IMG/VR virus record: IMGVR_UViG_2778261446_000002
Coordinates: 1 to 13,131 of that record
Length of the DNA: 13,131 nucleotides
Strand: one strand, 5' to 3'
Origin: a virus
Taxonomy: Duplodnaviria; Heunggongvirae; Uroviricota; Caudoviricetes
Made by a program: the position numbers and the translations under genes. Below the pieces are notes generated by a model. It ran no database searches and was not told where the DNA came from. It saw nothing but the letters and a program-made list of their open reading frames with translations. Positions 1-13,131 of this stretch are shown piece by piece; within the stretch, counting starts at the first letter, position 1, and every line of letters begins with the position of its first letter.

Positions 1-65
1 CACGGGAATATCTGCGGCAGCAGGCCAGTAATGGGTTAAGTGATAACAGGTGTCTGGAAATATAG
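1..65 (+). CDS. IS2 transposase OrfB/InsD, C-terminal fragment (5' partial)
   Basis: Frame starting at base 3 reads REYLRQQASNGLSDNRCLEI then TAG at 63-65, resembling the IS2 InsD C-terminus from memory. The reading frame is open to the window edge. Confidence 0.6.
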   Translation, partial: REYLRQQASNGLSDNRCLEI

Positions 66-76
66 GGGCAAATCCA
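1..76 (+). mobile_element. IS2-family insertion sequence, right terminus (partial; element continues upstream of the window)
   Basis: Bases 1-76 end in ...GGTTAAGTGATAACAGGTGTCTGGAAATATAGGGGCAAATCCA, matching the IS2 right inverted repeat as I recall it, with a few substitutions. Host dsdC sequence resumes at base 77. Confidence 0.7.
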
Positions 77-580
77 CTGCAACGTGCCGGAATCGATTTG
101 GCGATCTACTTTGATGATGCGCCGTCAGCGCAACTCACTCATCACTTTCTGATGGATGAAGAAATCCTGCCAGTATGTAGCCCGGAATACGCTCAAAGAC
201 ATGCTTTAACCAACACGGTAATTAACCTGTGTCACTGTACGTTGCTCCATGACAGACAGGCATGGAGCAACGACTCCGGTACGGATGAATGGCATAGTTG
301 GGCGCAACATTATGCGGTTAATTTGCCGACATCTTCTGGAATTGGCTTTGATCGTTCTGATTTAGCTGTTATTGCCGCGATGAATCATATTGGGGTGGCG
401 ATGGGAAGAAAACGCCTGGTACAAAAAAGGCTTGCCAGTGGTGAGCTCGTCGCGCCGTTTGGCGATATGACGGTGAAATGCCATCAGCATTATTACATCA
501 CCACATTACCGGGCAGGCAGTGGCCAAAAATTGAAGCGTTTATTACCTGGCTAAGAGAACAGGTAAAAACCACTTCATAA
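77..580 (+). pseudogene. dsdC: dsdC (LysR-type D-serine regulator), 3' fragment truncated by the IS2 insertion; effector-binding domain only
   Basis: Translation LQRAGIDLAIYFDDAPSAQ...ITWLREQVKTTS* looks like the C-terminal half of a LysR-type regulator and matches my recollection of DsdC. The six-frame ORF start at ATG 50 lies inside the IS terminus, so it is not the native start. The N-terminal HTH half is absent from the window. Confidence 0.8.
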
Positions 581-675
581 TGAATAAAACCACGAGTTCC
601 TGGTGTGCCTTATTCGGCCTGCTAGTTCGAATTTAATTTACGGTTTTTATGTGGTTTTAGGGATAAACACAAGGA

Positions 676-690
676 TGGTGTCCCCTGCAG
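676..690 (-). other. attR core: 15 bp identical to the 3' end of tRNA-Arg argW (CTGCAGGGGACACCA on the minus strand)
   Basis: Plus-strand TGGTGTCCCCTGCAG is the reverse complement of the argW 3' terminus ...CTGCAGGGGACACCA. The flanking sequence does not continue the tRNA, so this is the partial duplicate at the prophage/host junction. Confidence 0.6.
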
Positions 691-763
691 ACATCTACTT
701 GAGGCGGCATGGGATTGATTGGAATGGTGTTTTTTAGATGTGAAAAATATTTTACCCGCTATT

Positions 764-964
764 TTACCCATTAGCGCGGCTTAAGAGCTTATTTTTGAAT
801 TCACAATGGTCACGATATAACCATCTTGCTCGCCCGTGGATAACTTTGGCTTTTGGCAGGTCGCCGGACTTAATCCGGTCATAGATGAAGGTTTTACCAA
901 AGCCAGTATCAGCCATGATGAATTTCAAATCAACCAGTGAATCAGGCTGTAGTTCGTGTTGCAT
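764..964 (-). CDS. torI: TorI-type excisionase / recombination directionality factor (66 aa)
   Basis: 66-aa product MQHELQPDSLVDLKFIMADTGFGKTFIYDRIKSGDLPKAKVIHGRARWLYRDHCEFKNKLLSRANG matches TorI of KplE1 as I recall it. SD GGAGAT precedes the ATG, and the gene sits next to the att core. Confidence 0.85.
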   Translation of the reverse strand: MQHELQPDSLVDLKFIMADTGFGKTFIYDRIKSGDLPKAKVIHGRARWLYRDHCEFKNKLLSRANG

Positions 965-1007
965 GAGTGCTATCTCCGAATAGGGAATCGAACCTGCAAA
1001 TCAGGTA

Positions 1008-1030
1008 ATAAAAAACCGCCATCAGGCGGC
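1008..1030 (-). terminator. Rho-independent terminator (minus strand); the stop codon of the upstream small gene lies in the loop
   Basis: Minus-strand CCGCC-TGAT-GGCGG hairpin followed by TTTTTTAT. Confidence 0.6.
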
Positions 1031-1189
1031 TTGGTGTTCTTTCAGTTCTTCAATTCGAATATTGGTTACGTCTGCATGTGCTATCTGCGCCCATATCATC
1101 CAGTGGTCATAGCAGTCGTTGATGTTCTCCGCTTCGATAACTCTGTTGAATGGTTCTCCATTCCATTCACCTGTGACTCGGAAGTGCAT
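1022..1189 (-). CDS. Hypothetical small phage protein (55 aa)
   Basis: ATG at 1189 preceded by GGAGATGATAA; product MHFRVTGEWNGEPFNRVIEAENINDCYDHWMIWAQIAHADVTNIRIEELKEHQAA, ending in the terminator loop. Below the size cut-off of the ORF track. Confidence 0.4.
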   Translation of the reverse strand: MHFRVTGEWNGEPFNRVIEAENINDCYDHWMIWAQIAHADVTNIRIEELKEHQAA

Positions 1190-1200
1190 TTATCATCTCC

Positions 1201-1226
1201 ATAAAACAAAACTCGCCGTAGCGAGT
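1201..1226 (-). terminator. Candidate rho-independent terminator (minus strand)
   Basis: ACTCGC-TACG-GCGAGT hairpin followed on the minus strand by TTTGTTTTAT. It sits between the 63-aa gene and the 55-aa gene. Confidence 0.45.
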
Positions 1227-1269
1227 TCAGATAAAAGAAATCCATCAATTGGTTAGGGTTTTTGTAATT

Positions 1270-1461
1270 CTACGAATTATGTTGTTTTTTAGCTTCAGCT
1301 TTCCATTCATCAAAGGCAGTGTCTTTGTTCATGGTGCTGATATTGATCTTACGGTCAATATCATATACACGCCACTCACCGTTAGGCCTCTCTTCGCATC
1401 TAACTAAGTATGAATTGCCATTAATATCTATGCGTCTGTCTATTTGCATGAACATTTTCAA
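1270..1461 (-). CDS. Hypothetical phage protein (about 61-63 aa)
   Basis: ORF-track ORF. SD GAGGG is 8 nt upstream of a TTG at 1461; in-frame ATGs at 1455 and 1449 are alternatives. Confidence 0.45.
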   Translation of the reverse strand: MKMFMQIDRRIDINGNSYLVRCEERPNGEWRVYDIDRKINISTMNKDTAFDEWKAEAKKQHNS

Positions 1462-1572
1462 TTTTCGAACCCTCTTTAATATGCATTTTTTGCTATTTCA
1501 GTAGTTTACTATTGATGAGGCGTTATTATACACACTTCATTAATGCAAGCATCTTTATGCTATGCTACTAAT

Positions 1573-1854
1573 TTAGCAATTGATATTTACCTTTATCGCG
1601 TATACCTTAACCGGTTTATCGCCGAAGTGGGGATGTGTGATTGTCTTGATTTCATATCCACCATACGGAACATCAATTCTACGGCTGGAATCGTCGCGCT
1701 TCGGATATCCCTTTGTGATAATCAGGCGGTCATACTCCCGGAACATAATTCGCTTATTCCAATAGTCATTACACAGGCGATACTCTTCCGTTTTCTCTCC
1801 TCGAATCATGGCATCGAAGTATTCACCTTTGACGGCAAGTTGCAGGTTAGCCAC
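1573..1854 (-). CDS. Hypothetical protein, possibly ASCH/PUA-like fold (94 aa)
   Basis: GTG start at 1854 preceded by AGGAGG and overlapping the stop of the upstream gene. The longer ORF-track version lacks an RBS. The ASCH-like assignment is a weak impression from the sequence pattern. Confidence 0.5.
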   Translation of the reverse strand: MANLQLAVKGEYFDAMIRGEKTEEYRLCNDYWNKRIMFREYDRLIITKGYPKRDDSSRRIDVPYGGYEIKTITHPHFGDKPVKVYAIKVNINC

Positions 1855-2413
1855 GGTTAACCTCCTGCGGCGGCTCTGGTAGCGGCATCCAGTGTGACGG
1901 CTCACATACCCCCTCAACACCATTCATGTAAAAGAATTGAAATAACCCTTTACCTTTGTGAAACCCTACCATCTGCTCTTTTGTGTCTGAACAATAAACC
2001 AAAACATCTTCTTCGTTTGGCATTCGCTCACTACAGCTTATCCAACTATCCGGAGTTACCGGAGAGTTGCCCGATAGCTGGTTCAACTTGTAAGTTTGGC
2101 TTACAGGTTCGGCTTTCAGTTCTGCTATGCGCTTTTTTGCTGTTTCCAGCTCATCCAGCAGCGCCAAGACGGTAGCCGGATTGGCTGCGGCGATGAATTC
2201 AGCATTGGCCTGCTGTTCCATTTGGAAATCTTCATCGAAGCCGCTTTCAGGATGCGCTCCTTCAATTCTGCAAATGGGAAGATATCCAACAACGTCACGA
2301 TGAATTAGCGCATCACCAGCATCAAGCCTCTCCTCTCCATATTCTAGCGACCACACACCACACGTTGCTTTCTCTGCCGCCTCACGCAGTGCCTGATAGT
2401 CAATCTTGCTCAC
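1847..2413 (-). CDS. Ead/Ea22-like N-terminal region fused to a DUF551-type C-terminal domain (188 aa)
   Basis: GTG start with strong SD AAGGAGG 7 nt upstream, overlapping the upstream stop (GTGA). C-terminal SHWMPLPEPP is typical of DUF551; N-terminal AANPATVLALLDELE is typical of ead/Ea22-like prophage proteins. Confidence 0.6.
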   Translation of the reverse strand: MSKIDYQALREAAEKATCGVWSLEYGEERLDAGDALIHRDVVGYLPICRIEGAHPESGFDEDFQMEQQANAEFIAAANPATVLALLDELETAKKRIAELKAEPVSQTYKLNQLSGNSPVTPDSWISCSERMPNEEDVLVYCSDTKEQMVGFHKGKGLFQFFYMNGVEGVCEPSHWMPLPEPPQEVNRG

Positions 2414-2892
2414 TGGTCGCCTCCTTTGCGAAGCTGGTCGGCGAACAAACGTACACTAGACGCTTCACTGCGTAGAAACTTAACGGCATAATCAAAACCA
2501 CCTCGTTCTGCGTCGTCTGCTCCGTTGTCGAGGTTATCTGCGTACATCTCTACCCCCTGCGCCCGTACTTCAGCCAGGAAAGCATCGGTAGATGGGGTGT
2601 TAAGTGAAAAGTCCTGTCGGCCTGATTTCAGATACGCAATGGCGATCTTTGTTGCTGCGCATTCGACAGCGAATTTCTCTTTTTCAGCAGCCATCTTCGC
2701 GCACTTGGCCTCAAGGTTATCAATCGTGATTCCAGCAGAACGACACTCCCGCAACGCCGTTTCCAGTTTTGATTCAAGTTCACCGAACTTACGCACCAGA
2801 TATTCAGCGTTTGTTTCGTTAACCTTTAAATCACTTGGGATGCATTTACCTTTCAGAAATCCATCCATCTCAATTAGTGACATTTGTTTCAT
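2410..2892 (-). CDS. Hypothetical Ea22-like coiled-coil protein (about 160 aa)
   Basis: ATG at 2892 ([12 protein letters not shown]...) overlaps the stop of the upstream 54-aa ORF (ATGA). The ORF-track start at 2910 is a GTG 18 nt further up. Confidence 0.55.
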
Positions 2893-3053
2893 TTCTTCCC
2901 ACTCCGCCACATTGCATTCAGATATTTGTTGTCATTAACAGAACCGAAACTATTTCTCTTAAGCAATTCCTCTCTCGATGGCATTGGCTTTACGCGTTGG
3001 CGAATAATCATTTCTGCCGGAAGAATGCCGGGATTGTATGCAAGTCCTCTCAT
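2889..3053 (-). CDS. Hypothetical small protein (54 aa), translationally coupled on both sides
   Basis: ATG at 3053 overlaps the stop of the upstream gene (ATGA) and its own TGA overlaps the ATG of the downstream gene (ATGA). Product [54 protein letters not shown]. Confidence 0.45.
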
Positions 3054-3340
3054 GATTTACTCTCCACGAACTGGTCAACGGCCATGCTAAGTGACACACC
3101 TAAAGTATCGATATGCTGCTGAATATCCTGTAGCGTCCGCGCTTGAGATAACAGAATTTCACGGTTGCATAACTCTTTAACCAGATGCTCAAACTTGCTG
3201 TAATAACCGATACGGCTTAGTGTTTCTTTCCCTGCATTCTCACCTTCTTTGATAATTCCTCTTTCGCTAAGAATCAGGTCGTGTTTGGTTCCGGTAATAA
3301 CGTATTTGCCGAGGTCGATGTTTAGCTTCATTGTTTTCAT
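3050..3340 (-). CDS. Hypothetical phage protein (96 aa)
   Basis: ATG at 3340 ([14 protein letters not shown]...) preceded by GAGG. An alternative ATG at 3358 overlaps the upstream stop. The longer ORF-track version has no RBS. Confidence 0.5.
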
Positions 3341-3350
3341 TGTTAATTCC

Positions 3351-3647
3351 TCAGTCATTACTGATAGCGCCATAGCGTGAGCGGTAATTACGCAGGCGCG
3401 GGTCGATATATTCAGGGAAGTGGGTATATGTGGCTTTGCGGAATGGTCGGATTGATGTCTGGTAAATTCGCTCTCGTTCTTCTTTCTCTGCAAGCCATAT
3501 ACAGTGGCGAAATTCCTTTTCTTCTTTCGTTTCCTGCGGTAGCGACATTATCCGGTCGTAGTTTTTCCTGAATTTATCCAGCACCTCCGATACGGAATTG
3601 CCGGAACAGCGGCGCGCGTCGTCCGCACCATACAGAGGCGCTGGCAT
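3351..3647 (-). CDS. Hypothetical basic phage protein (98 aa)
   Basis: ATG at 3647 with SD AGGAG 7 nt upstream; begins 14 nt after the SSB stop. Confidence 0.6.
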   Translation of the reverse strand: MPAPLYGADDARRCSGNSVSEVLDKFRKNYDRIMSLPQETKEEKEFRHCIWLAEKEERERIYQTSIRPFRKATYTHFPEYIDPRLRNYRSRYGAISND

Positions 3648-3660
3648 GATTTTCTCCTGA

Positions 3661-4176
3661 TTAAATTGCGTGAATAGCGTGACGAGGGAAGGGGAGGGTT
3701 ACTGGCGCAAAAGGTATATCGTCGTCAAACTCCATAGGTGGTTCGCTGTGATTTACCTGCTTCTGAGGCTGCTGTTTTTGTTGCTGACCGTTATTTCGCT
3801 GAGGTGAAGACTGTTCATTGCTTCCTTGCTTGCCACCAAGCATTTGCATGGTTCCACCAACGCCCACGATAACTTCGGTAGTGAACCGATCCTGTCCGCT
3901 TTGATCCTGCCATTTTCTTGTCCGCAATTTTCCTTCAAGATAAACCTCAGAGCCTTTTCGCAGATATTCGCTGGCAATTTCTGCCAGTTTCCCGCTCATT
4001 ACCACACGGTGCCACTCCGTCTGCTCCTTTTGCTCTCCAGTTTGCTTATCACGCCATTGTTCTGACGTAGCAACTATAAGGTTTGCAAATGCCGTTCCTG
4101 ATGGTGAATATCTGATTTCTGGATCATGCCCAAGGCGACCAATAATGATCACCTTATTTACGCCTCTACTTCCCAT
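3661..4176 (-). CDS. ssb: Single-stranded DNA-binding protein (SSB) with a 15-residue extension beyond the conserved DDDIPF tail
   Basis: N-terminal OB-fold region closely parallels E. coli SSB (SRGVNKVI..., [40 protein letters not shown]), followed by a Gln/Gly-rich linker and the acidic motif MEFDDDIPF, then [15 protein letters not shown] before the stop. Confidence 0.9.
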
Positions 4177-4884
4177 TTATGCCGCCTGTTTTAGTTCGTT
4201 AACTCTGATGTTCATTACCTGAACGCATTTAGCCTGCGCATCCTCATTGCCAGCCATTAATTGCCAGTCATGCTGATAACGTTCTATGAGTTTTTTCTTG
4301 TCAGTTTCTGTTGATGCATAATCGCTGAAGTCTTTCAGGATTTGTTCGCAGTCAACCGATGGAGATTTCTGGTTGGTATTTTCTGGTGATGGTTTGTTAT
4401 CTGATGCTGGGATTGCCCAGCCCGGCAGCGATGGAGGGAGCCAGTAAAATCCTGTTCCATCCTTCAGTTTTGCCCTGTGCCACCCCTGCTTTTTATCGGG
4501 AGATGTTTGTGCGAAACCTTCCTCAAGGTTATACAGATACCGACCGATTCCCCACTGAACGGCAGCGCGCTTCATTGCACCGGAACGACCACCTTTGACG
4601 GCTTCTACCTGCGTGTTTTCAGCAGCATCCCATTTGGTTACCCATTCGGAATCAATCTTTATTGATATGCCGCATTCAACGCCGCCGTTGTTGGGAATAT
4701 CGCGGTATTCATTGCGCCATCCTGCTTTGCCACAAACATCGTCAAGGCGTTTCATGATTGCCCGGTTCGTAACATAAGCCAGCACCATAGCCCACACCTT
4801 GCCATCGCGTGTTTTACCGCTTTGCTGTATTCGCCATTCGATATCTTCAGGGCAGAATGGCTCATCGAATTTGTTCAAATCCAT
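4177..4884 (-). CDS. Single-strand annealing recombinase, Rad52/Sak-like (235 aa)
   Basis: Sits immediately upstream of ssb in the position of lambda bet/exo. The motif GGRSGAMKRAAVQWGIGRYLYNL resembles the Rad52-family annealing core. Family assignment is by pattern, not by search. Confidence 0.6.
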   Translation of the reverse strand: MDLNKFDEPFCPEDIEWRIQQSGKTRDGKVWAMVLAYVTNRAIMKRLDDVCGKAGWRNEYRDIPNNGGVECGISIKIDSEWVTKWDAAENTQVEAVKGGRSGAMKRAAVQWGIGRYLYNLEEGFAQTSPDKKQGWHRAKLKDGTGFYWLPPSLPGWAIPASDNKPSPENTNQKSPSVDCEQILKDFSDYASTETDKKKLIERYQHDWQLMAGNEDAQAKCVQVMNIRVNELKQAA

Positions 4885-4892
4885 AATTCACC

Positions 4893-5063
4893 TCAGAATG
4901 GACATGGCCCAAGGAAATAACGCTGGTTTAATACTTCGACTCGGGACAAATTAAGGCATACCCGCATTCCTTCGCGGTCACCATTATGGCGATACCAGAG
5001 AGCTTTTTGCGTGTACATGCGTCTCTGTAACTTGCTCTCCTTCACTGTGGTTGCAAGTGACAT
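4893..5063 (-). CDS. Candidate small ORF (56 aa), overlapping an alternative ORF
   Basis: ATG at 5063 preceded by a strong SD (GAAGGAGATATTC-ATG); stop 9 nt before the annealing-protein start. Overlaps the 4984-5142 ORF in another frame, so both cannot be fully confirmed. Confidence 0.3.
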   Translation of the reverse strand: MSLATTVKESKLQRRMYTQKALWYRHNGDREGMRVCLNLSRVEVLNQRYFLGPCPF

Positions 5064-5142
5064 GAATATCTCCTTCGTTACCGATTAATTCTTTCATCTG
5101 ACGAATGAATTCTTCGTCTGACCAGTTATCTGTAAAACTCAT
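4984..5142 (-). CDS. Candidate small acidic ORF (52 aa), translationally coupled to the kil-like gene
   Basis: ATG at 5142 overlaps the kil-like stop (ATGA). Product MSFTDNWSDEEFIRQMKELIGNEGDIHVTCNHSEGEQVTETHVHAKSSLVSP. Confidence 0.35.
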   Translation of the reverse strand: MSFTDNWSDEEFIRQMKELIGNEGDIHVTCNHSEGEQVTETHVHAKSSLVSP

Positions 5143-5291
5143 TTCCTGCGATACCACGGAATGTTGATCGCTGATTTCATCGCTTTATTTGCTTCAAGCC
5201 ACATTTTGGAATCACCAATAAATCTGGCTATTACTGCTTTGTTCTGTGCAGCACGAAGCATCTGGTGATTAATGACTATTTCATTGCGCAT
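5139..5291 (-). CDS. Kil-like small protein (50 aa), candidate host cell-division inhibitor
   Basis: ATG at 5291 overlaps the cIII-like stop, with SD GGAGG. Product MRNEIVINHQMLRAAQNKAVIARFIGDSKMWLEANKAMKSAINIPWYRRK. The FIGD.KM core resembles my recollection of lambda Kil, and the position right after cIII fits. Confidence 0.45.
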   Translation of the reverse strand: MRNEIVINHQMLRAAQNKAVIARFIGDSKMWLEANKAMKSAINIPWYRRK

Positions 5292-5410
5292 AACGCCTCC
5301 AGTTGTTTCTTTGCTGCTCTGATTAATTGTTTAACTCGGCGTGATAATTCAGATTCGTGCGGGTAGAAAGCGGACATGACGCCGCTACCCGCGAGCTGAA
5401 AGTGCATCAT
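5276..5410 (-). CDS. cIII-like protein (44 aa), candidate FtsH inhibitor
   Basis: ATG at 5410 with SD AAGGAG. Product MMHFQLAGSGVMSAFYPHESELSRRVKQLIRAAKKQLEALCAMK shows the A.AG...P.ES.L..R...L pattern of the lambda CIII amphipathic helix. The 79-aa ORF-track extension runs through a terminator and is rejected. Confidence 0.5.
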   Translation of the reverse strand: MMHFQLAGSGVMSAFYPHESELSRRVKQLIRAAKKQLEALCAMK

Positions 5411-5474
5411 GGGTAACTCCTTATATTTGATTGCATAACGAAAACGCCTCAAGTGAAGCGTTATTGGTATGCAT

Positions 5475-5500
5475 ATAAAAAAGCCCCCACACTGGAGGGC
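5475..5500 (-). terminator. Rho-independent terminator (minus strand) upstream of the cIII-like gene
   Basis: Minus-strand GCCCTCCAGTGTGGGGGC hairpin followed by TTTTTTAT. Confidence 0.6.
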
Positions 5501-5595
5501 AAAGAAGATTTCCAATAATCAGAACAAGTCGGCTCCTGTTTAGTTACGAGCGACATTGCTCCGTGTATTCACTCGTTGGAATGAATACACAGTGC

Positions 5596-5796
5596 TTATT
5601 CGCGAGCTTTGAGCATTGCGTCTGCAAACTTATATGCAGCGCTTGCTGCATAATTAACAGCTCCATCAGAATCATTATCGATAATCGATGGATTGCTAAT
5701 CATTGCTTGCATAGCCTTTGCCGCGAAGTAATCACGTAATGTCGCATCACTTGCCATTTCTGGGCGTTTGATATCTGCTTCGTAAAACTCGCACAT
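5596..5796 (-). CDS. Hypothetical phage protein (66 aa)
   Basis: ATG at 5796 overlaps the upstream stop (TGATG) with SD GGGAGGTGA. Product MCEFYEADIKRPEMASDATLRDYFAAKAMQAMISNPSIIDNDSDGAVNYAASAAYKFADAMLKARE. Confidence 0.55.
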   Translation of the reverse strand: MCEFYEADIKRPEMASDATLRDYFAAKAMQAMISNPSIIDNDSDGAVNYAASAAYKFADAMLKARE

Positions 5797-6092
5797 CACT
5801 CACCTCCCAGAGCCTTGATGATTGCTGCAAAACCTTTATTAACAGCTCCATACCATTCTGGATATGTTGTCGTTGTTCTATTTTTGGATTGCTTAAGTAA
5901 TAACTGAAGTGCTTCGAGAAGGTCAGGTGCTGCCGCTATTAGATTGGCATCTTCAATGCATTGAACTTCCTCACAGATTGCAATATACGAACGCCAGCCT
6001 GCGCCATTTTCAAGAGAGTCTGCCTGGATGATTTTAATCTCATCGCCATCCATCATTATTTCCCACTTACCTTCAGTACCTTTAAATTCCAT
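5796..6092 (-). CDS. Hypothetical phage protein (98 aa) with an ead/Ea22-like motif
   Basis: ATG at 6092 with SD AGAGG. Contains LIAAAPDLLEALQLL, similar to the AANPATVLALLDELE motif of the 1847-2413 protein. Confidence 0.6.
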   Translation of the reverse strand: MEFKGTEGKWEIMMDGDEIKIIQADSLENGAGWRSYIAICEEVQCIEDANLIAAAPDLLEALQLLLKQSKNRTTTTYPEWYGAVNKGFAAIIKALGGE

Positions 6093-6112
6093 GTTAGCCT
6101 CTGTTGTTTATG

Positions 6113-6143
6113 CCAAAAATAAAGGCCACCATCAGGCAGCCTT
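6113..6143 (-). terminator. Candidate tL1-like rho-independent terminator just after ral
   Basis: Minus-strand AAGGCUGCC-UGAU-GGUGGCCUU hairpin (two G-U pairs) followed by UAUUUUUGG; the ral stop codon lies in the loop. Confidence 0.5.
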
Positions 6144-6332
6144 GTTGTTCAGTTTACCAAGTTCTCTGGCAATCATTGCCGTCGTTCGTATTGCCCATTT
6201 ATCGACATATTTCCCATCTTCCATTACAGGAAACATTTCTTCAGGCTTAACCATGCATTCCGATTGCAACTTGCATCCATTGCATCGTTTGAATTGTCCA
6301 CACCATTGATTCTTATCAATAGTCGTAGTCAT
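6132..6332 (-). CDS. ral: Ral-like restriction alleviation protein (66 aa)
   Basis: 66-aa Cys-rich product MTTTIDKNQWCGQFKRCNGCKLQSEC..., located directly downstream of N and orf28 as in lambda. Matches my recollection of lambda Ral in size and start. Confidence 0.55.
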   Translation of the reverse strand: MTTTIDKNQWCGQFKRCNGCKLQSECMVKPEEMFPVMEDGKYVDKWAIRTTAMIARELGKLNNKAA

Positions 6333-6402
6333 ACGGATAGTCCTGGTATTGTTCCATCACATCCTGCGGATGCTCTTCGAACTCTTCAAATTCTTTTTCC
6401 AT
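6316..6402 (-). CDS. orf28-like small acidic ORF (28 aa)
   Basis: ATG at 6402 with SD GAGGTG. Product MEKEFEEFEEHPQDVMEQYQDYPYDYDY overlaps the ral start by 17 nt. Lambda has a 28-codon ORF in this position. Confidence 0.35.
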   Translation of the reverse strand: MEKEFEEFEEHPQDVMEQYQDYPYDYDY

Positions 6403-6410
6403 ATCTCACC

Positions 6411-6737
6411 TCAAATAAGTGGTTTGCTGCCTAATTTCATTTTCTGGCGACCAACACAAGTCACACCCATTTCACTGCGTGGCTTGCTGTACCATGTGCG
6501 CTGATTCTTGCGCTCAATACGTTGCAGGTTGCTTTCAATCTGTTCGTGGTATTCAGCCAGCACCGTAAGGTCTATCGGATTCAGTGCGCTTTCTACTCGT
6601 GATTTCGGTTTGCGATTCAGCGAGAGAATAGGGCGGTTAACTGGTTTTGCGCTTACCCCAACCAACAGGGGATTTGCTGCTTTCCATTGAGCCTGTTTCT
6701 CTGCGCGACGTTCGCGGCGGCGTGTTTGTGCATCCAT
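6411..6737 (-). CDS. N: Antitermination protein N (lambda-type, 108 aa)
   Basis: Product MDAQTRRRERRAEKQAQWKAANPLLVGVSAKPVNRPILSLNRKPKSRVESALNPIDLTVLAEYH... is near-identical to lambda N, with SD CAGGAGAATCCAG-ATG as in lambda. The 30-codon upstream extension in the ORF track is rejected. Confidence 0.9.
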   Translation of the reverse strand: MDAQTRRRERRAEKQAQWKAANPLLVGVSAKPVNRPILSLNRKPKSRVESALNPIDLTVLAEYHEQIESNLQRIERKNQRTWYSKPRSEMGVTCVGRQKMKLGSKPLI

Positions 6738-6847
6738 CTGGATTCTCCTGTCAGTTAGCTTTGAGTAACGCGCCGTGATGCTTATCTCCACGGTTGCTGT
6801 CTTGCAGCTGCATTTCGCGCTACTCAAAGCCTTCTGCTTTGAATGCT

Positions 6848-6878
6848 GCCCTTCTTCAGGGCTTAATTTTTAAGAGCC
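6848..6878 (-). promoter_or_regulatory. nutL (boxA GGCTCTTA, boxB GCCCTGAAGAAGGGC)
   Basis: Minus strand reads GCTCTTAAAAATTAAGCCCTGAAGAAGGGCAGCATTC, essentially lambda nutL. Confidence 0.85.
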
Positions 6879-6918
6879 TCACCTTCAATGGTGGTTAGTG
6901 CGTCCTGCTGATGGCTAA

Positions 6919-6996
6919 ATAGTACGATTTGTACTTTATCGAGTCAATACAAAATGTTCTAAATATAATTGGTTTTTTATAACGCTTTGTATTTAA
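6919..6996 (-). promoter_or_regulatory. pL-type promoter with candidate OL operators
   Basis: Minus strand has -35 TTGACT (6942-6947), a 17-nt spacer and -10 TACTAT (6919-6924), then the lambda-like leader ATCAGCAGGACGCACT. Inverted repeat AGTACgatttGTACT (6921-6935) lies in the spacer; related sites at 6945-6959 and 6982-6996. Confidence 0.55.
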
Positions 6997-7011
6997 TGGG
7001 TTTATATTTTG

Positions 7012-7040
7012 GAAAAAGAAAACCCGACACTAAGGTCGGG
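7012..7040 (-). terminator. Rho-independent terminator downstream of the repressor gene
   Basis: Minus-strand CCCGAC-CUUAGU-GUCGGG hairpin followed by UUUUCUUUUUCC, 33 nt after the cI-like stop. Confidence 0.6.
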
Positions 7041-7072
7041 TTATTGTTGTGTGCTTTAGAGTGGTGAGGCTG

Positions 7073-7732
7073 TTAACTAAATGTCTCTTCAGGCCACTGG
7101 CTGGCGATAACTTTCCCTACAACGGAACAGCTATCATTGCATGGGATCATTGGATATTGCGGGTTTAGTGGCTGTAGGAACACCTGACCGCTATCCCTGA
7201 TCAGTTTCTTGAAGGTAAACTCGTCACCACCAAGTCTGGCTATGCAGAAATCACCTGGCTCAACAGCCTGCTCAGGGTCAACGAGAATTAACATCCCGTC
7301 AGGAAAGCTTGGCTTGGATCCTGTTGGCGCGGTCATGGAATTACCTTCAACTTCAAGCCAGAACGCACAATCACTGGCTTTTTTGGTTGTGCTGACCCAT
7401 CTCTCCGCATCACCTTTGGTAAAGGTTCTAAGCTCAGGCGAGAACATCCCGGCCTGAACATGAGAAAAAACAGGGTACTCATATTGTTTTTTAACGGGGG
7501 CAGATGAGTATTCGCCAACAGGTGAAAATGTACCGTCGTGGTTGAATGAGACGTTATCAATACCAAGGTATTTAAACACCACACCAATCTCGTCAAGAGA
7601 TGGATGACGAGATCCGCGCAACCAGTGACCAATTCCACCCTGCGTCATACCAAGCTCTTCAGCTAACTTCTCTTGAGTTATGCCGAGCTCTTTCATTCTG
7701 GATCTAGCCAGTTCATACCATTTCATTTTCAT
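7073..7732 (-). CDS. cI: CI-type prophage repressor (HTH plus LexA/S24-like autocleavage domain), P22 C2-like
   Basis: N-terminal HTH ([22 protein letters not shown]) and C-terminal [13 protein letters not shown]...FTFKKL...[12 protein letters not shown] closely parallel the P22 C2 C-domain as I recall it. Start uncertain: ATG 7732, ATG 7726 (better SD spacing) or ORF-track ATG 7774. Confidence 0.8.
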
Positions 7733-7741
7733 ACCCTTATT

Positions 7742-7817
7742 ATTACGCTCTGTACTAAAACCATCCATGCACAAGATGTATTTTTTGTTTGCATTCTAAA
7801 AGTACATATCGTATTAT
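7742..7817. promoter_or_regulatory. OR operator region with pR and divergent pRM
   Basis: pR has -35 TTGCAT (7789-7794), a 17-nt spacer and -10 TATTAT (7812-7817). Candidate operators AGTACatatcGTATT (7801-7815) and ATTACgctctGTACT (7742-7756) share the half-sites seen at OL. Candidate pRM -10 TAGAAT on the minus strand (7793-7798). Confidence 0.5.
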
Positions 7818-7843
7818 TGTTTCATGGTTACTATGGAGGGCAT

Positions 7844-8059
7844 ATGAGCAACCTACGAAAATATCGAGAGTCACTGAATATCTCTCAAACAACACTTGCT
7901 AAGGCAGTTGGATGCACACAGGGAGCTATCGGACATTGGGAATCTGGTCGTCGCTTCCCAGACCTTAAAACATGCCGTGCTCTTGTTGAGTGCCTAAACA
8001 AGTTAGGCGCAAAAGTCAGTCTTGATGACGTGTTCCCGCCGGAACACAAAGCCGCTTAA
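7844..8059 (+). CDS. cro: Cro-type HTH repressor (71 aa), not lambda Cro
   Basis: ATG at 7844 with SD GGAGGG. HTH motif ISQTTLAKAVGCTQGAIGHWESG; divergent from the cI-like gene across the operator region. Confidence 0.7.
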   Translation: MSNLRKYRESLNISQTTLAKAVGCTQGAIGHWESGRRFPDLKTCRALVECLNKLGAKVSLDDVFPPEHKAA

Positions 8060-8067
8060 GACATTCC

Positions 8068-8099
8068 CGCTCTTACACATCCCAGCCCTGAAAAAGGGC
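8068..8099 (+). promoter_or_regulatory. nutR (boxA CGCTCTTAC, boxB GCCCTGAAAAAGGGC)
   Basis: CGCTCTTACACATCCCAGCCCTGAAAAAGGGC, essentially lambda nutR. Confidence 0.85.
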
Positions 8100-8170
8100 A
8101 TCAAATTAAACCACACCTATGGTGTATGCATTTATTTGCATACCTTCAATCAATTGTTATCTAAGGAAAT
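8100..8170 (+). terminator. tR1-like rho-dependent terminator region
   Basis: ATCAAATTAAACCACACCTATGGTGTATGCATTTATTTGCATACCTTCAATCAATTG is near-identical to my recollection of the lambda tR1 region between nutR and cII. Rho dependence cannot be read from sequence. Confidence 0.45.
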
Positions 8171-8178
8171 ACTTACAT

Positions 8179-8472
8179 ATGGTTCGTGCAAACAAACGCA
8201 ACGAGGCTCTAAGAATCGAGAGTGCGTTGCTTAACAAAATCGCAATGCTTGGAACTGAGAAGACAGCGGAAGCTGTGGGAGTTGATAAGTCGCAGATCAG
8301 CAGGTGGAAGAGGGATTGGATTCCAAAGTTCTCAATGCTGCTTGCTGTTCTTGAATGGGGCGTCGTCGACGACGATATGGCTCGATTGGCACGACAAGTT
8401 GCTTCGATTCTCACCAATAAAAAACGCCCGGAGGCAACCGAGCGTTCTGAACAAATCCAGATGGAATTCTGA
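8179..8472 (+). CDS. cII: Transcriptional activator CII (lambda-type, 97 aa)
   Basis: Product [75 protein letters not shown]... is near-identical to lambda CII. The 20-codon ORF-track extension is rejected. Confidence 0.9.
8188..8201 (-). promoter_or_regulatory. pRE CII-binding site (TTGC-N6-TTGC direct repeats)
   Basis: Minus strand reads TTGCGTTTGTTTGC within the 5' end of cII, as in lambda pRE. Confidence 0.7.
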
Positions 8473-8496
8473 GGTCATTACTGGATCAATCCACAG
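8418..8496 (-). ncRNA. oop: OOP antisense RNA (antisense to the cII 3' end)
   Basis: Minus strand reads GGATTGATCCAGTAATGACCTCAGAATTCCATCTGGATTTGTTCAGAACGCTCGGTTGCCTCCGGGCGTTTTTTAT, matching lambda OOP as recalled and ending in hairpin CGCUCGG/CCGGGCG plus a U-run. The 5' end is approximate. Confidence 0.7.
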
Positions 8497-8504
8497 GAGT
8501 CATT

Positions 8505-8651
8505 ATGACAAAACAACTCAGTCCTTACCAGGACAAAATTCACAAACACATACTACGTGATCGCTTCCTGTCCAGCTTCAAGCAGCCTGGTCGATTCCGG
8601 GCTGAGTTGGAAAAAGTGAAGCTGATGCAGAAGGAGAAAGGTCATGAGTAA
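8505..8651 (+). CDS. Hypothetical small basic protein (48 aa) between cII and the initiator gene
   Basis: ATG at 8505 with SD AGGAG 6 nt upstream; stop overlaps the O-like start by 8 nt. Below the ORF-track size cut-off. Confidence 0.45.
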
Positions 8652-9504
8652 TCTTGCAACCGTAACACATTTAAGGCCTTCACAACGGCCTGTGGAGCGT
8701 CGTGTGGCAGAAGTTGAAGATGGTTATACCCGTCTTGCAAATGCCCTGTATGAAGAGCTTATCGGCGCAGATTTAACGAAAAATCAGAGCAAGGTTGCCC
8801 ACGCCATATGCCGTAAAACATACGGCTACGGTAAAAAGATGGATCGCATTTCTGATAGTCAGTTAGCTCAAATTACCAGGCTGCCAAGACAGAAGGTAAA
8901 CAAGGCCAAGAATGAGCTTATCGCGATGAAGGTTATCCTTCGCGAAGGCCAGCAAATCGGGCCTAACAAGAACATCGAAGAATGGCAAATCGAAGGGTGT
9001 CACTACTCTGGTGATAATGTCACTGCATTGGTGACAAAAAGTGTCACCAAAACGGTGACAGCGCTGTCACCAAAACAGGGACACACAAAAGAAACTATTA
9101 CAAAAGAAAAAAGAAATAATAAAAACACTATGTCCGAAAGTGTTCGGACGGAGTGTGAAAAATCATCTGACCGTCACGAAGAAACCGACAAGGCATTCGA
9201 GGAAATATTCTGGTGTGCAGGCATGCGGAAAGCCGGGAAGAAAAACGCGGCTTCGGCATTCAGAACACAGTTCAGGGAATGGCGTAAAACTACCAGGGGT
9301 ACGGCAAGCGAGTTTGCCACGATGCTGGCAGAAGACATCGCATGCAGGAATGGTAAGCAGTTCGGATTCGACAGGTTGTTACCATCGAGCTACCTGAACG
9401 GTCAACGCTGGAACGACGAGAAGCCAGAAACTATTCAACCACAATCCAAACCATCATCCGCAATCACCGTATCGAAAACTGGCTACGTGTTTTTCGACAG
9501 GTGA
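8644..9504 (+). CDS. Replication initiator, lambda O-like N-terminal domain with a divergent C-terminal domain (286 aa)
   Basis: N-terminal region ([57 protein letters not shown]...) resembles the phage O N-terminal DNA-binding domain. The gene contains the iteron array, as lambda O does. Confidence 0.75.
9010..9130. repeat. Replication origin: palindromic GGTGACA...TGTCACC iterons followed by an A-rich (AT-rich) tract, inside the O-like gene
   Basis: GGTGATAATGTCACTG (9010-9025), GGTGACAAAAAGTGTCACC (9030-9048) and GGTGACAGCGCTGTCACC (9054-9071) separated by AAAAC, then about 50 nt of A-rich sequence. Confidence 0.6.
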
Positions 9505-9507
9505 ACC

Positions 9508-9615
9508 ATGAAATCAAAAATCAAATCGCTACTGGTCGCTGGTTATAACCACGGCTGGTTAAGTATTTCGTTTGTCGATTTCTGGTTTAAAAATCTCAAT
9601 CTGAGGGAATCATGA
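9508..9615 (+). CDS. Candidate small hydrophobic ORF (35 aa) coupled to the primase-helicase
   Basis: ATG at 9508 with a short-spaced SD AGGTGA; TGA overlaps the ATG of the next gene (ATGA). Product MKSKIKSLLVAGYNHGWLSISFVDFWFKNLNLRES. Confidence 0.3.
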   Translation: MKSKIKSLLVAGYNHGWLSISFVDFWFKNLNLRES

Positions 9616-11492
9616 CGCCAAGTGAACTTAGCGACCTGCTTTGGGCGCAGGTTGACAGGGTGGCTCCGCACCTGTTGCCAAACGGCAAGAAAGAGGGGCA
9701 TGAGTGGGTTGCCGGTAACGTCAACGGTGACAAGGGAAACAGCCTTAAGGTCAACCTTAGCGGCAAGAAAAAATGGGCTGATTTCGCTGAGGGAGACGGC
9801 GGTGACATGCTTGATTTGTGGATGGCATGTCGTGGAATTAACCTGCATCAGGCTATGCAGGAAGCGAAAGCCTTTCTCGGAATCAAGGATGACGATCACC
9901 ATTTCGATGCCAAACGTGAGAAGAAATTCTCCAGACCTGACCGCAAGAAAATCGCCCGCTACGTTACCAGAACAGAATCCCATCTTGAGTACCTGCAATC
10001 GCGTGGCATATCGCCAGAAGTCGTAAAGCGCTACGAGGTTGTCAGCGGCAAGGTGTGGAAGGGAGAACGAGAACTTGATGCACTGGTGCTTCCGTACAAA
10101 CGCGATGGTGAGTTGTTGCAGGTCAAGCGAATCAGCACTGAGCGCCCGGACGGGAAGAAAGTCATTATGGCAGAAGGTGATTGCGAACCTTGTCTGTTCG
10201 GATGGCAGGCTCTGGACGCTGGCGTGAGGGCGGTTGTGCTTTGCGAAGGCGAAATTGATTGTATGAGCTATGCGCAATACGGCATCTCGGCGTTATCCGT
10301 GCCGTTTGGTGGAGGGAAAGGCGCTAAGCAACAGTGGATTGAGTTTGAGTACCACAACCTCGACAGGTTTGAGGAAATATTCATCTCGATGGACGTTGAT
10401 GATGTTGGTCGTGAAGCCGCAAGGGAAATCGCAAGCCGACTCGGTGAACATCGTTGCCGTCTTGTTACTCTGCCGTACAAAGACATCAACGAATGCCTGA
10501 TGAACGGTGTTACCGAGGATGAAATCTGGCAGTACATCGGCACGGCATCCTACTTCGATCCTGAAGAACTCTACAGTGCGCGAGAGTTTTACCAGGACAC
10601 TATCAACGCTTTCTACGGCAAGCAGCAGTATCTGTTTAATCCACCGTGGGAATCTCTGGCAGATAAATTCCAGTTCCGTGAGGCAGAGTTGACGCTGGTC
10701 AATGGTGTGAACGGTCACGGAAAAACGGAGGTTGTCGGGCATATGGCACTTGAGGCAATGCGTCAGGGTGTGAAGACGTGCATCGCGTCACTTGAGCTGA
10801 AGCCTGGTATTCTCCTTAAGCGCCTTACCCGTCAGGCGACGTGCTGCAAGATGCCGCCAGTGCTGGAAATTGACTCTGCATTTAAATTTTATGACGAAAG
10901 ACTTTGGGTGTTTGGTCTGACCGGAACGGCGAAAGCCGACAGGCTGATCGAAATATTCGACTACGCTCGCCGCCGATACGGGATCCAGTTATTCATCATC
11001 GACAGCCTGATGAAATGTGGCATAGGCGACGATGACTATAACGGGCAGAAGGCGTTTGTTGACTCGATTTGCGACTTCAAAAACAAAACAAACTCCCACG
11101 TCATTCTCGTTACTCACTCGCGAAAAGGAGACAGCGAAGAAAAACCAACCGGGAAAATGGACGTAAAAGGCTCTGGAGCGATAACAGACCTGACAGACAA
11201 CCTTTTCATCATCTGGCGTAACAAGGCTCGCGAGAGAGCGTTACAGAGAGTTCAGAGTGGTGAAAAGATGTCAGAGAAGGACGAACAGCTACTGGCATCT
11301 CCGGCATCTGTTTTGATGCTTGAAAAACAACGTAACGGCGAAGGTTGGGAAGGTGGTGTCCCGTTGTTCCTTGACGAGCAATCGCACCAGTTCCTGCAAC
11401 TTGAATCAGGATCGCCATATAGCTACATCGCCAATATGCCGAAATCGGAATATGACGAGGCGTGGCGACAGGAAAACGTGACGGAGTATTAA
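9612..11492 (+). CDS. Bifunctional DNA primase/helicase (Toprim domain plus DnaB/RecA-like P-loop helicase, 626 aa)
   Basis: Toprim signatures (VVLCEGEIDCMSYAQ; ISMDVDDVGREAA), Walker A (NGVNGHGKTE) and Walker B (IQLFIIDSLMK). SD GAGGG 5 nt upstream. It occupies the position of lambda P. Confidence 0.75.
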   Translation: MTPSELSDLLWAQVDRVAPHLLPNGKKEGHEWVAGNVNGDKGNSLKVNLSGKKKWADFAEGDGGDMLDLWMACRGINLHQAMQEAKAFLGIKDDDHHFDAKREKKFSRPDRKKIARYVTRTESHLEYLQSRGISPEVVKRYEVVSGKVWKGERELDALVLPYKRDGELLQVKRISTERPDGKKVIMAEGDCEPCLFGWQALDAGVRAVVLCEGEIDCMSYAQYGISALSVPFGGGKGAKQQWIEFEYHNLDRFEEIFISMDVDDVGREAAREIASRLGEHRCRLVTLPYKDINECLMNGVTEDEIWQYIGTASYFDPEELYSAREFYQDTINAFYGKQQYLFNPPWESLADKFQFREAELTLVNGVNGHGKTEVVGHMALEAMRQGVKTCIASLELKPGILLKRLTRQATCCKMPPVLEIDSAFKFYDERLWVFGLTGTAKADRLIEIFDYARRRYGIQLFIIDSLMKCGIGDDDYNGQKAFVDSICDFKNKTNSHVILVTHSRKGDSEEKPTGKMDVKGSGAITDLTDNLFIIWRNKARERALQRVQSGEKMSEKDEQLLASPASVLMLEKQRNGEGWEGGVPLFLDEQSHQFLQLESGSPYSYIANMPKSEYDEAWRQENVTEY

Positions 11493-11521
11493 ATGACCAT
11501 CTACATCACTGAGCTAATAAC

Positions 11522-11553
11522 AGGCCTGCTGGTAATCGCAGGCCTTTTTATTT
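11522..11553 (+). terminator. Rho-independent terminator after the replication genes (tR2-like position)
   Basis: AGGCCTGC-TGGTAATC-GCAGGCCT hairpin (8 bp) followed by TTTTTATTTGG. Confidence 0.7.
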
Positions 11554-11568
11554 GGGGGAGAGTAAATC

Positions 11569-11775
11569 GTGGCTGAGTTTATGCTCGTCGCATTCAAATG
11601 CGTTGGCGTTGGATGGATTCTTCTGACGTTTTTTATTGTTCTGCATAGCTACATTCGTCTTGTGAATGACGGTAAAGACCCATGGTATACGTTGTTTGGC
11701 GCTGCATTTGTCTGGGTGATTATCGGTGTTATGCCTGTCGCTGTAGCAAAAATGGCGTGGCGTTTTGTGAGTTGA
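11569..11775 (+). CDS. Small membrane protein with two predicted transmembrane helices (68 aa)
   Basis: GTG start at 11569 with SD GGGGGAGAG 8 nt upstream. Two hydrophobic stretches (LVAFKCVGVGWILLTFFIVL; LFGAAFVWVIIGVMPVAVA). Confidence 0.55.
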   Translation: MAEFMLVAFKCVGVGWILLTFFIVLHSYIRLVNDGKDPWYTLFGAAFVWVIIGVMPVAVAKMAWRFVS

Positions 11776-11792
11776 ACTGAGGGTAAGTATCG

Positions 11793-12149
11793 ATGGACGA
11801 ATCAAGAAAGCAGTTTGAGGAATACGTTGCCAAAAAATTGAGATTACCATTCGAGATGATAACCGAGGCAAGAAATGGTGATAGGTACTTCGCATTTTCA
11901 AGCATGGATATTCGTCACTCCTTAAATGAGTGGTGGACTTTATGGCAGGCATCGCGAGCAGCTATTGAACTGGATATCGACTGGCCAGAATCGAATGACG
12001 ACTTTTGGAAAGATGGTGAAGAAGGTGCTTATGCGATGGGTTATGAGGATGGGCGTGACAAAACGGTAATTGCAGTAATGAAAGCTATCAGAGCCGCTGG
12101 AATTAAAGAGAAGAATTTCGATGAAGCAAACAATATTCCTCCGAACTAA
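11793..12149 (+). CDS. Hypothetical acidic phage protein (118 aa)
   Basis: ATG at 11793 with SD GAGGG; the 3' end overlaps the ninB start by 29 nt. Confidence 0.6.
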   Translation: MDESRKQFEEYVAKKLRLPFEMITEARNGDRYFAFSSMDIRHSLNEWWTLWQASRAAIELDIDWPESNDDFWKDGEEGAYAMGYEDGRDKTVIAVMKAIRAAGIKEKNFDEANNIPPN

Positions 12150-12531
12150 GCAACAACAGCAAGCCGCAATCAACGCCATCCTCGCAACACCACTCGATAA
12201 AGACAAGCCAGTCACCATCCGCATTACTGACTACAAGCGCAACCTTGACCAGAACGCAAAATTTCACGCGATGCTGGCGGATATCGCACGTCAGGTTCAA
12301 TGGTGCGATAAGTGGTTAAAACCAGAACAATGGAAGGTTTTGTTGATTAGCGGTCATGCAGTGGCAACAAAGCAGGAAGCTGATGTTTTACCCGGCCTTG
12401 AAGGCGAATACGTCAACATTCGCGAAAGCAGCGCGCAGATGAGCGTGAAGCGTATGGCAAGTCTTATCGAGTACACAACAGCATGGGCTATTGGTCAGGG
12501 TGTCAGATTTACCGACAGGAGGTACGAATGA
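12121..12531 (+). CDS. ninB: NinB-like recombination protein (136 aa)
   Basis: Start MKQ..., the [20 protein letters not shown] motif and overall length parallel lambda NinB as I recall it. Confidence 0.7.
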
Positions 12532-12704
12532 GGCGACAGCGACGAAGTTTCACCGACATCATCTGCGAAAACTGCAAATACCTTCCAACGAAACGCTCCA
12601 GAAATAAACGCAAGCCAATCCCAAAAGAATCTGACGTAAAAACCTTCAATTACACAGCTCACCTGTGGGATATCCGGTGGCTAAGATATCGTGCGAGGAA
12701 ATGA
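12528..12704 (+). CDS. ninE: NinE-like protein (58 aa)
   Basis: ATG at 12528 overlaps the ninB stop (ATGA) with SD GGAGG. Product [58 protein letters not shown] matches my recollection of the NinE family. Confidence 0.55.
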
Positions 12705-12972
12705 CAATGGATTATTCACAGTTAAGTGATTTTGAAATTAACAGAATGGTAGGAGACATAATTTTTAAAGGCCTTTGGGCAAGTAAACCGGAAACATCAG
12801 GGAATAACACCAACAAATGGTATTACGGAAATGCTGATACAACTTTTGAGCCATTAAATCATTTGCCTGACTACTGCAATGATCCGAGCGCTTCATGGCC
12901 GATTATTGAGAAATACAGGATTTCTATCTTAGACCAGTTAACTGAATGGTGTGTGGATGCAAAAGGCGTAAG
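12701..12972 (+). pseudogene. nin-region gene of unknown function, interrupted by the IS10-type insertion after codon 90
   Basis: ATG at 12701 overlaps the ninE stop (ATGA). The reading frame runs into the IS terminus at 12973, so the last 15 residues of the 117-aa ORF-track product are IS-encoded. Confidence 0.55.
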
Positions 12973-13131
12973 CCTGAGAGATCCCCTCATAATTTCCCCA
13001 AAGCGTAACCATGTGTGAATAAATTTTGAGCTAGTAGGGTTGCAGCCACGAGTAAGTCTTCCCTTGTTATTGTGTAGCCAGAATGCCGCAAAACTTCCAT
13101 GCCTAAGCGAACTGTTGAGAGTACGTTTCGA
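12973..13131 (-). mobile_element. IS10-type (IS4 family) insertion sequence, inside-end terminus (partial; continues beyond the window)
   Basis: Terminus CTGAGAGATCCCCTCATAATTTCC carries the GATC Dam site of the IS10 inside end and resembles the IS10 outside end CTGATGAATCCCC. The minus strand encodes a transposase C-terminus (see next feature). Confidence 0.7.
12986..13131 (-). CDS. IS10-type transposase, C-terminal fragment (5' partial, runs off the window)
   Basis: Minus-strand frame reads ...[47 protein letters not shown], matching my recollection of the Tn10/IS10 transposase C-terminus. The frame is open to the window edge. Confidence 0.65.

Follow-up and report, generated by a model that had tools for sequence, protein, structure and literature searches.

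An IS2-like element in codon 146 of dsdC and the predicted loss of D-serine-dependent dsdXA activation in a small E. coli clone

The window (the whole 13,131-nucleotide stretch analysed here) opens inside a mobile element and passes directly into the 3' part of dsdC. This raises the question of whether the LysR-type activator DsdC, and with it the response of the divergent dsdXA genes to D-serine, has been lost, or whether the pieces left by the insertion have taken on another role. DsdC is described as essential for D-serine sensing and for up-regulation of dsdXA through direct operator binding; a strain from which all dsdC copies had been deleted did not grow on D-serine until the gene was provided in trans (PMC9659370).

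The insertion in dsdC

Window positions 1–76 aligned to positions 1256–1331 of K-12 IS2A (E. coli K-12 NC_000913.3 381260–382590) with 72 of 76 bases identical, which supports the earlier assignment of this segment to the right end of IS2. The differences fell at positions 22, 26, 27 and 50, and megablast returned IS copies 100% identical to the segment in many E. coli genomes. Its last bases are ...TTAAGTGATAACAGGTGTCTGGAAATATAGGGGCAAATCCA, ending in the IS2 IRR terminal sequence ...GGGGCAAATCCA. The complete element, which extends outside the window, was found in the carrier locus L001 (12746–14076, 1331 bp), where it starts with TAGACTGGCCCCCTGAATCTCC (IRL, TAGACTGGCCCCC...) and is annotated by RefSeq as 'IS3 family transposase, programmed frameshift'; the annotated coding sequence ends at L001 14065, equivalent to window 65, the last base of the transposase TAG stop. 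The product matched the Pfam families HTH_Tnp_1, HTH_21, rve and rve_3, as expected of an orfA/orfB transposase with a –1 frameshift and a DDE domain. Identity to IS2A over the 1331 bp was 95.6% (58 substitutions, no indels), a borderline value for near-identity at ~95% of nucleotides or more, so that 'IS2-like' or 'IS2 isoform' appears to be the safest name. The element shares with K-12 IS2 its length (1331 bp), terminal sequences, orfA/orfAB organization with programmed frameshift, 5-bp target duplication and a transposase C-terminus that ends inside the IRR. It differs from K-12 IS2 by an A-to-G change at IS position 1305, through which the terminal ATG of canonical IS2 has become GTG.

The preliminary description had placed the end of IS2 against dsdC codons, and the boundary was confirmed at base 76/77 by an identical junction in three complete genomes. 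Frame 2 from base 77 reads LQRAGIDLAIYF... (LQRAGIDLAIYFDD...) up to a TAA at 578–580, and its translation was identical to residues 145–311 of annotated DsdC (WP_001300996.1). What the same description had proposed to look for upstream was present in the relatives: the IS2 left end (from L001 12746), the target duplication and a dsdC 5' fragment (L001 12309–12745) adjoining intact, divergent dsdXA. The left junction in L001 reads ...GACAACGTCAATCTGCA then TAGACTGGCCCCCTGAATCTCC..., and the right junction ...GGGGCAAATCCA then CTGCAACGTGCC...; CTGCA occurs at both 12741–12745 and 14077–14081, and only once in intact dsdC. Removal of the element together with one CTGCA gave a 936-bp open reading frame that differed from dsdC of E. 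coli C by one synonymous nucleotide and encoded a 311-residue protein identical to WP_001300996.1. This restoration places the insertion within codon 146. For the source strain we infer the upstream half from its near-identical relatives, with the IRL joined to ...AATCTGCA. An assembly artefact was ruled out, since three closed genomes, independent of one another, contain the junction, as do three draft contigs at their ends.

In all three complete carriers (L001, L002 and L003) the gene order was dsdA-dsdX, annotated on the minus strand, followed divergently by dsdC', the IS and 'dsdC. The gene thus keeps its divergent position beside dsdX-dsdA next to argW, and the window shows the argW side. 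Intact dsdC of E. coli C occupies the same site and encodes the same protein as the reconstructed gene, whereas codon 146 of the gene here is broken by the element and the annotation gives a pseudogene fragment on either side. These were entered in all three carriers as 'LysR family transcriptional regulator, missing C-terminus' for the 5' piece and 'LysR substrate-binding domain-containing protein, missing N-terminus' for the 3' piece, with the frameshifted IS3 family transposase entry between them.

Table 1. Features of the window, in order of position
Feature	Position	Strand	Remarks
IS2-like right end (IRR side), IS3 family	1–76	+	window begins within the element
IS2 orfB/orfAB transposase (InsD), last 20 codons and TAG stop	3–65	+	frame 3, translation REYLRQQASNGLSDNRCLEI*
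Mechanically called 176-aa ORF	50–580	+	GTG start in the IS terminus, VSGNIGANP (9 IS-encoded residues), then DsdC 145–311
dsdC 3' remnant, codons 145–311 and TAA	77–580	+	frame 2 translation; about three-quarters of the LysR effector-binding domain, no HTH
Right copy of the 5-bp target-site duplication CTGCA	77–81		left copy precedes the IS left end, outside the window
Native spacer from dsdC to the argW attachment site	581–690		identity with prophage-free 19SZHZ886Rt
torI	764–964	minus
ead/Ea22-like, anti-RecBCD, ssb, Rad52-like recombinase, kil, cIII, ral, N			next in prophage order
LexA-family repressor	7073–7768	minus
cro-like, cII			between the LexA-family repressor and Phage_rep_O in order
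Phage_rep_O	8644–9504
Toprim/AAA primase-helicase	9612–11492
ninB/ninE/ninX			after the primase-helicase

Domain content of the two pieces and the state of dsdXA

Intact DsdC comprises HTH_1 (residues 18–76) and LysR_substrate (residues 99–307) in Pfam, and its closest solved relative, GcvA (8y6u, E = 9e-37), aligned over both domains in the usual LysR-type architecture. The remnant in the window covered positions 52–208 of the 209-position LysR_substrate profile (E = 5.8e-17), and the 5' piece held a complete HTH_1 with LysR_substrate profile positions 2–45. The cut therefore falls at profile position about 45–52, roughly 47 residues inside the effector domain and not in the hinge. The HTH half is indeed separated from the rest by the element, as had been proposed; the remnant is likewise effector-domain sequence with no HTH, although the 'effector-binding half' it was said to represent is an incomplete domain. 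The 5' piece would encode DsdC 1–145 followed by HRLAP, with a stop inside the IS (150 residues in total, also called by an independent gene caller), and would comprise the winged HTH and the linker helix together with the opening ~47 residues of the effector domain. Because the break lies inside that domain, neither fragment carries a whole effector-binding domain. HTH_1 was absent from the remnant, and the reconstructed gene contained both HTH_1 and LysR_substrate; judged by domain content, then, the gene is a disrupted DsdC member, that is, a pseudogene.

The preliminary description would have been overturned by an intact dsdC elsewhere in the genome. None was found in the three complete junction-bearing genomes, in which each dsdC half matched at one place by megablast, a search that a very divergent regulator would escape. 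The queries for this count (window 60–580 and L001 12309–12763) were chosen so that only dsdC-specific sequence seeded matches, and both ranked the three carriers first; genomes with two copies of dsdC do exist in the collection, two being the maximum number of places per genome. DsdX (WP_000556048.1) and DsdA (WP_000426426.1) of the carriers had protein accessions shared with a strain whose dsdC is intact. The lack of secondary decay in dsdC, dsdX or dsdA indicates that the insertion is recent.

These observations suggest the following course of events. A 1331-bp IS2-like element would have transposed into codon 146 in the orientation of the gene, duplicating CTGCA and splitting DsdC into a 5' product of residues 1–145 plus HRLAP and a 3' piece of residues 145–311. 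Since neither piece has a complete effector-binding domain, D-serine-dependent activation of dsdXA should be lost and the divergent genes would become non-inducible; D-serine would then not support growth of the strain, and in minimal medium it would be inhibitory. That the insertion in codon 146 splits DsdC and abolishes D-serine-dependent dsdXA activation we regard as highly probable. A recent, simple loss of function, leaving D-serine unused and the strain sensitive to it, is the most likely reading, the phenotype being predicted from published dsdC knockouts (PMC9659370).

Carriers of the allele and the argW site

Megablast of window 1–700 against 5426 complete E. coli genomes recovered the intact junction in three (S163-2, TUM9754 and 19SZHZ886Rt); thousands of other genomes, with intact dsdC, matched from base 77 on only, and 2710 of the 5426 held the dsdC 3' half. 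Exact-sequence look-up of the 176-residue ORF returned TUM9754 and three draft contigs, in which it lay at IS-truncated ends. These contigs begin 15–50 bases upstream of the ORF, as expected of short-read assemblies that break at IS2, and bring the carriers to S163-2, TUM9754, 19SZHZ886Rt, GCA_009821355.1, GCA_038072135.1 and GCA_025156205.1. Over the 8 kb upstream, the three closed carriers differed from one another by 0–2 SNPs, one of them inside the IS, which argues for one inherited insertion event in a clone and not for repeated hits. The carriers differ at the adjacent argW site, so the allele has persisted through some diversification: 19SZHZ886Rt has no island there, TUM9754 has a ~43-kb prophage and a ~6-kb small island with two intS genes, and one draft contig (L012) apparently has the small island only. 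The event is thus recent, yet old enough to be common to a small clone.

At argW, the left junction of a prophage is marked by window bases 676–690, a duplicate of the last 15 nt at the 3' end of tRNA-Arg (argW). The genome of 19SZHZ886Rt matched the window without a difference through base 690 and diverged at 691; it carries intact argW on the minus strand at the equivalent of window 676–750, and the window itself contains no intact tRNA. Positions 691–12973 hold part of a lambdoid/P22-like prophage integrated at argW, namely its left arm and early region, and the window was identical to TUM9754 over bases 1–12973. The remaining bases, 12974–13131, form a 158-base end of an IS10-like element (CTGAGAGATCCCCTCATAATTTCCCC...) that is inserted in prophage ninX; they were 100% identical to copies that carry the annotation 'IS4-like element ISVsa5 family transposase'. 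The ninX/IS10-like junction was absent from all 5426 complete genomes, from which we take the source strain to be a fourth relative of TUM9754 and S163-2. Both window ends lie just inside multicopy IS elements (IS2 at 1–76, IS10-like at 12974–13131). The window probably represents a complete short-read contig whose assembly stopped at repeats; this would account for the absence of the upstream half of dsdC.

In TUM9754 the prophage antiterminator gene Q is split by a copy of IS1A (L007 14763–16163), and its prophage is therefore probably defective for late gene expression. The same genome carries tandem elements at argW (L008 682–7967), in which the ~6-kb remnant island comes after the ~43-kb prophage, which has an intS of its own. 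The island carries a recombinase of the resolvase type, IS1A, an O-antigen polymerase gene and, beside intact tRNA-Arg, a second intS. In draft contig L012 the dsdC remnant is joined directly to a resolvase gene, which suggests that this contig came from a relative without the large prophage. Each closed carrier had 12 places that matched the query, which leaves about 11 IS2 right ends in addition to the copy in dsdC. These extra ends and the prophage insertions of IS1 and the IS10-like element point to a lineage with active insertion sequences.

Other possible fates of the split gene

The 5' fragment might have changed function instead of losing it, if DsdC 1–145 with HRLAP bound the dsdC-dsdX operator, and possibly other sites, as a dimer and acted as a non-inducible repressor or occupant. 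It retains the start codon, the upstream region with the native promoter, a complete HTH_1 and the linker, and LysR-type fragments made up of the DNA-binding domain plus linker dimerise and bind DNA; a degree of DNA binding may thus be kept. Gene callers report the 150-residue product, and many chromosomal sites are bound by DsdC (PMC9659370). However, the ~47 residues of broken effector domain with 5 foreign residues would be unfolded, and such products are usually degraded. To bind stably, LysR-type regulators normally also require tetramerisation through their effector domains, and this would be lost. We consider such an occupant unlikely. Transcription out of the IS, which the preliminary description had raised as a way in which expression of the neighbourhood could change, might instead act rightward into the remnant and antisense to torI, or leftward from the IRL to make dsdXA constitutive. 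The transposase gene and the remnant share one reading direction, and the IS2 IRR carries an outward –35 that is used in fusion promoters at ampC, acrEF and neo (PMC9330008), the ampC case being that of Jaurin and Normark 1983 as reviewed there. Such promoters depend on a –10 hexamer in the flanking DNA. The same IS end abuts host DNA here, but the flank offers no –10 at usable spacing and a promoterless remnant, not a silent intact gene, lies downstream. Where the IRR meets dsdC, a sigma-70 fusion promoter was predicted neither by a standard scan nor by a lenient custom scan: in the dsdC flank CTGCAACG... there was no –10-like hexamer at usable spacing, CTGCAA and TGCAAC matching TATAAT at 1–3 of 6 positions, and a terminator-like hairpin follows at window 85–103. 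Some transcription from the IRR –35 into the remnant may occur even so. To the left, the lenient scan returned the weak pair TTAAGA-17-GATATT (8/12) inside the IS left end, a match of the quality expected by chance, and any transcript from it could reach dsdX only by passing through 437 nt of antisense dsdC and past the dsdC promoter, which it would meet head-on. An effect of outward transcription on the neighbours is, in our estimate, very improbable.

The remnant itself would matter if the HTH-less ORF at 50–580 were translated and functional, for example by binding D-serine or poisoning other LysR-type regulators. The in-frame start at 50–52 that had been described is in the frame stated, although the codon is GTG, ATG being found there in canonical IS2. 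It lies 27 nt upstream of the junction and 13 nt before the transposase stop, which makes termination-reinitiation conceivable, and the ORF was called by gene callers in four public assemblies. Against this, no Shine-Dalgarno sequence was present in the 20 bases before the GTG (AATGGGTTAAGTGATAACAG) and none that was convincing before the internal in-frame starts of the remnant; the 3' piece lacks both a promoter and a ribosome-binding site of its own, the product would be without the first ~47 effector-domain residues and be unlikely to fold, and PGAP treats the 3' remnant as a pseudogene. An InsD-DsdC fusion protein was excluded, as the transposase stops at 63–65 in frame 3 and dsdC is in frame 2. 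Expression of the 176-residue ORF appears unlikely on these features, and a functional product from it borders on the negligible. That the allele is anything other than a plain null, through stable DsdC(1–145) permanently occupying many sites or through leftward IS2 transcription driving dsdXA constitutively, we likewise hold to be quite unlikely; if either were true, D-serine handling in the clone would be rewired and not lost.

Loss of function thus remains the preferred reading, and it amounts to textbook insertional inactivation by an IS2 isoform at an allele already annotated by RefSeq as an IS and two pseudogene fragments. A literature search on dsdC insertions found no paper describing this allele. 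Natural loss of dsdCXA is known, as in the truncation of dsdCX in EHEC (PMC9659370), and the locus is absent from about half of E. coli. The predicted outcome, loss of D-serine catabolism, is the same as in such strains, whereas here a single IS interrupts the regulator only and dsdX and dsdA are intact. The loss should therefore be reversible in principle, by precise excision or by complementation.

D-serine handling is tied to niche, urine being rich in D-serine, and carriage of dsdCXA varies between pathotypes. The allele predicts a small E. coli clone that would be unable to use D-serine and would be sensitive to it, a phenotype that supplying dsdC should restore to normal, the structural genes being intact. 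It is not a new biological principle and has little importance beyond strain characterisation; within that scope, the dsdC case illustrates an active IS2.
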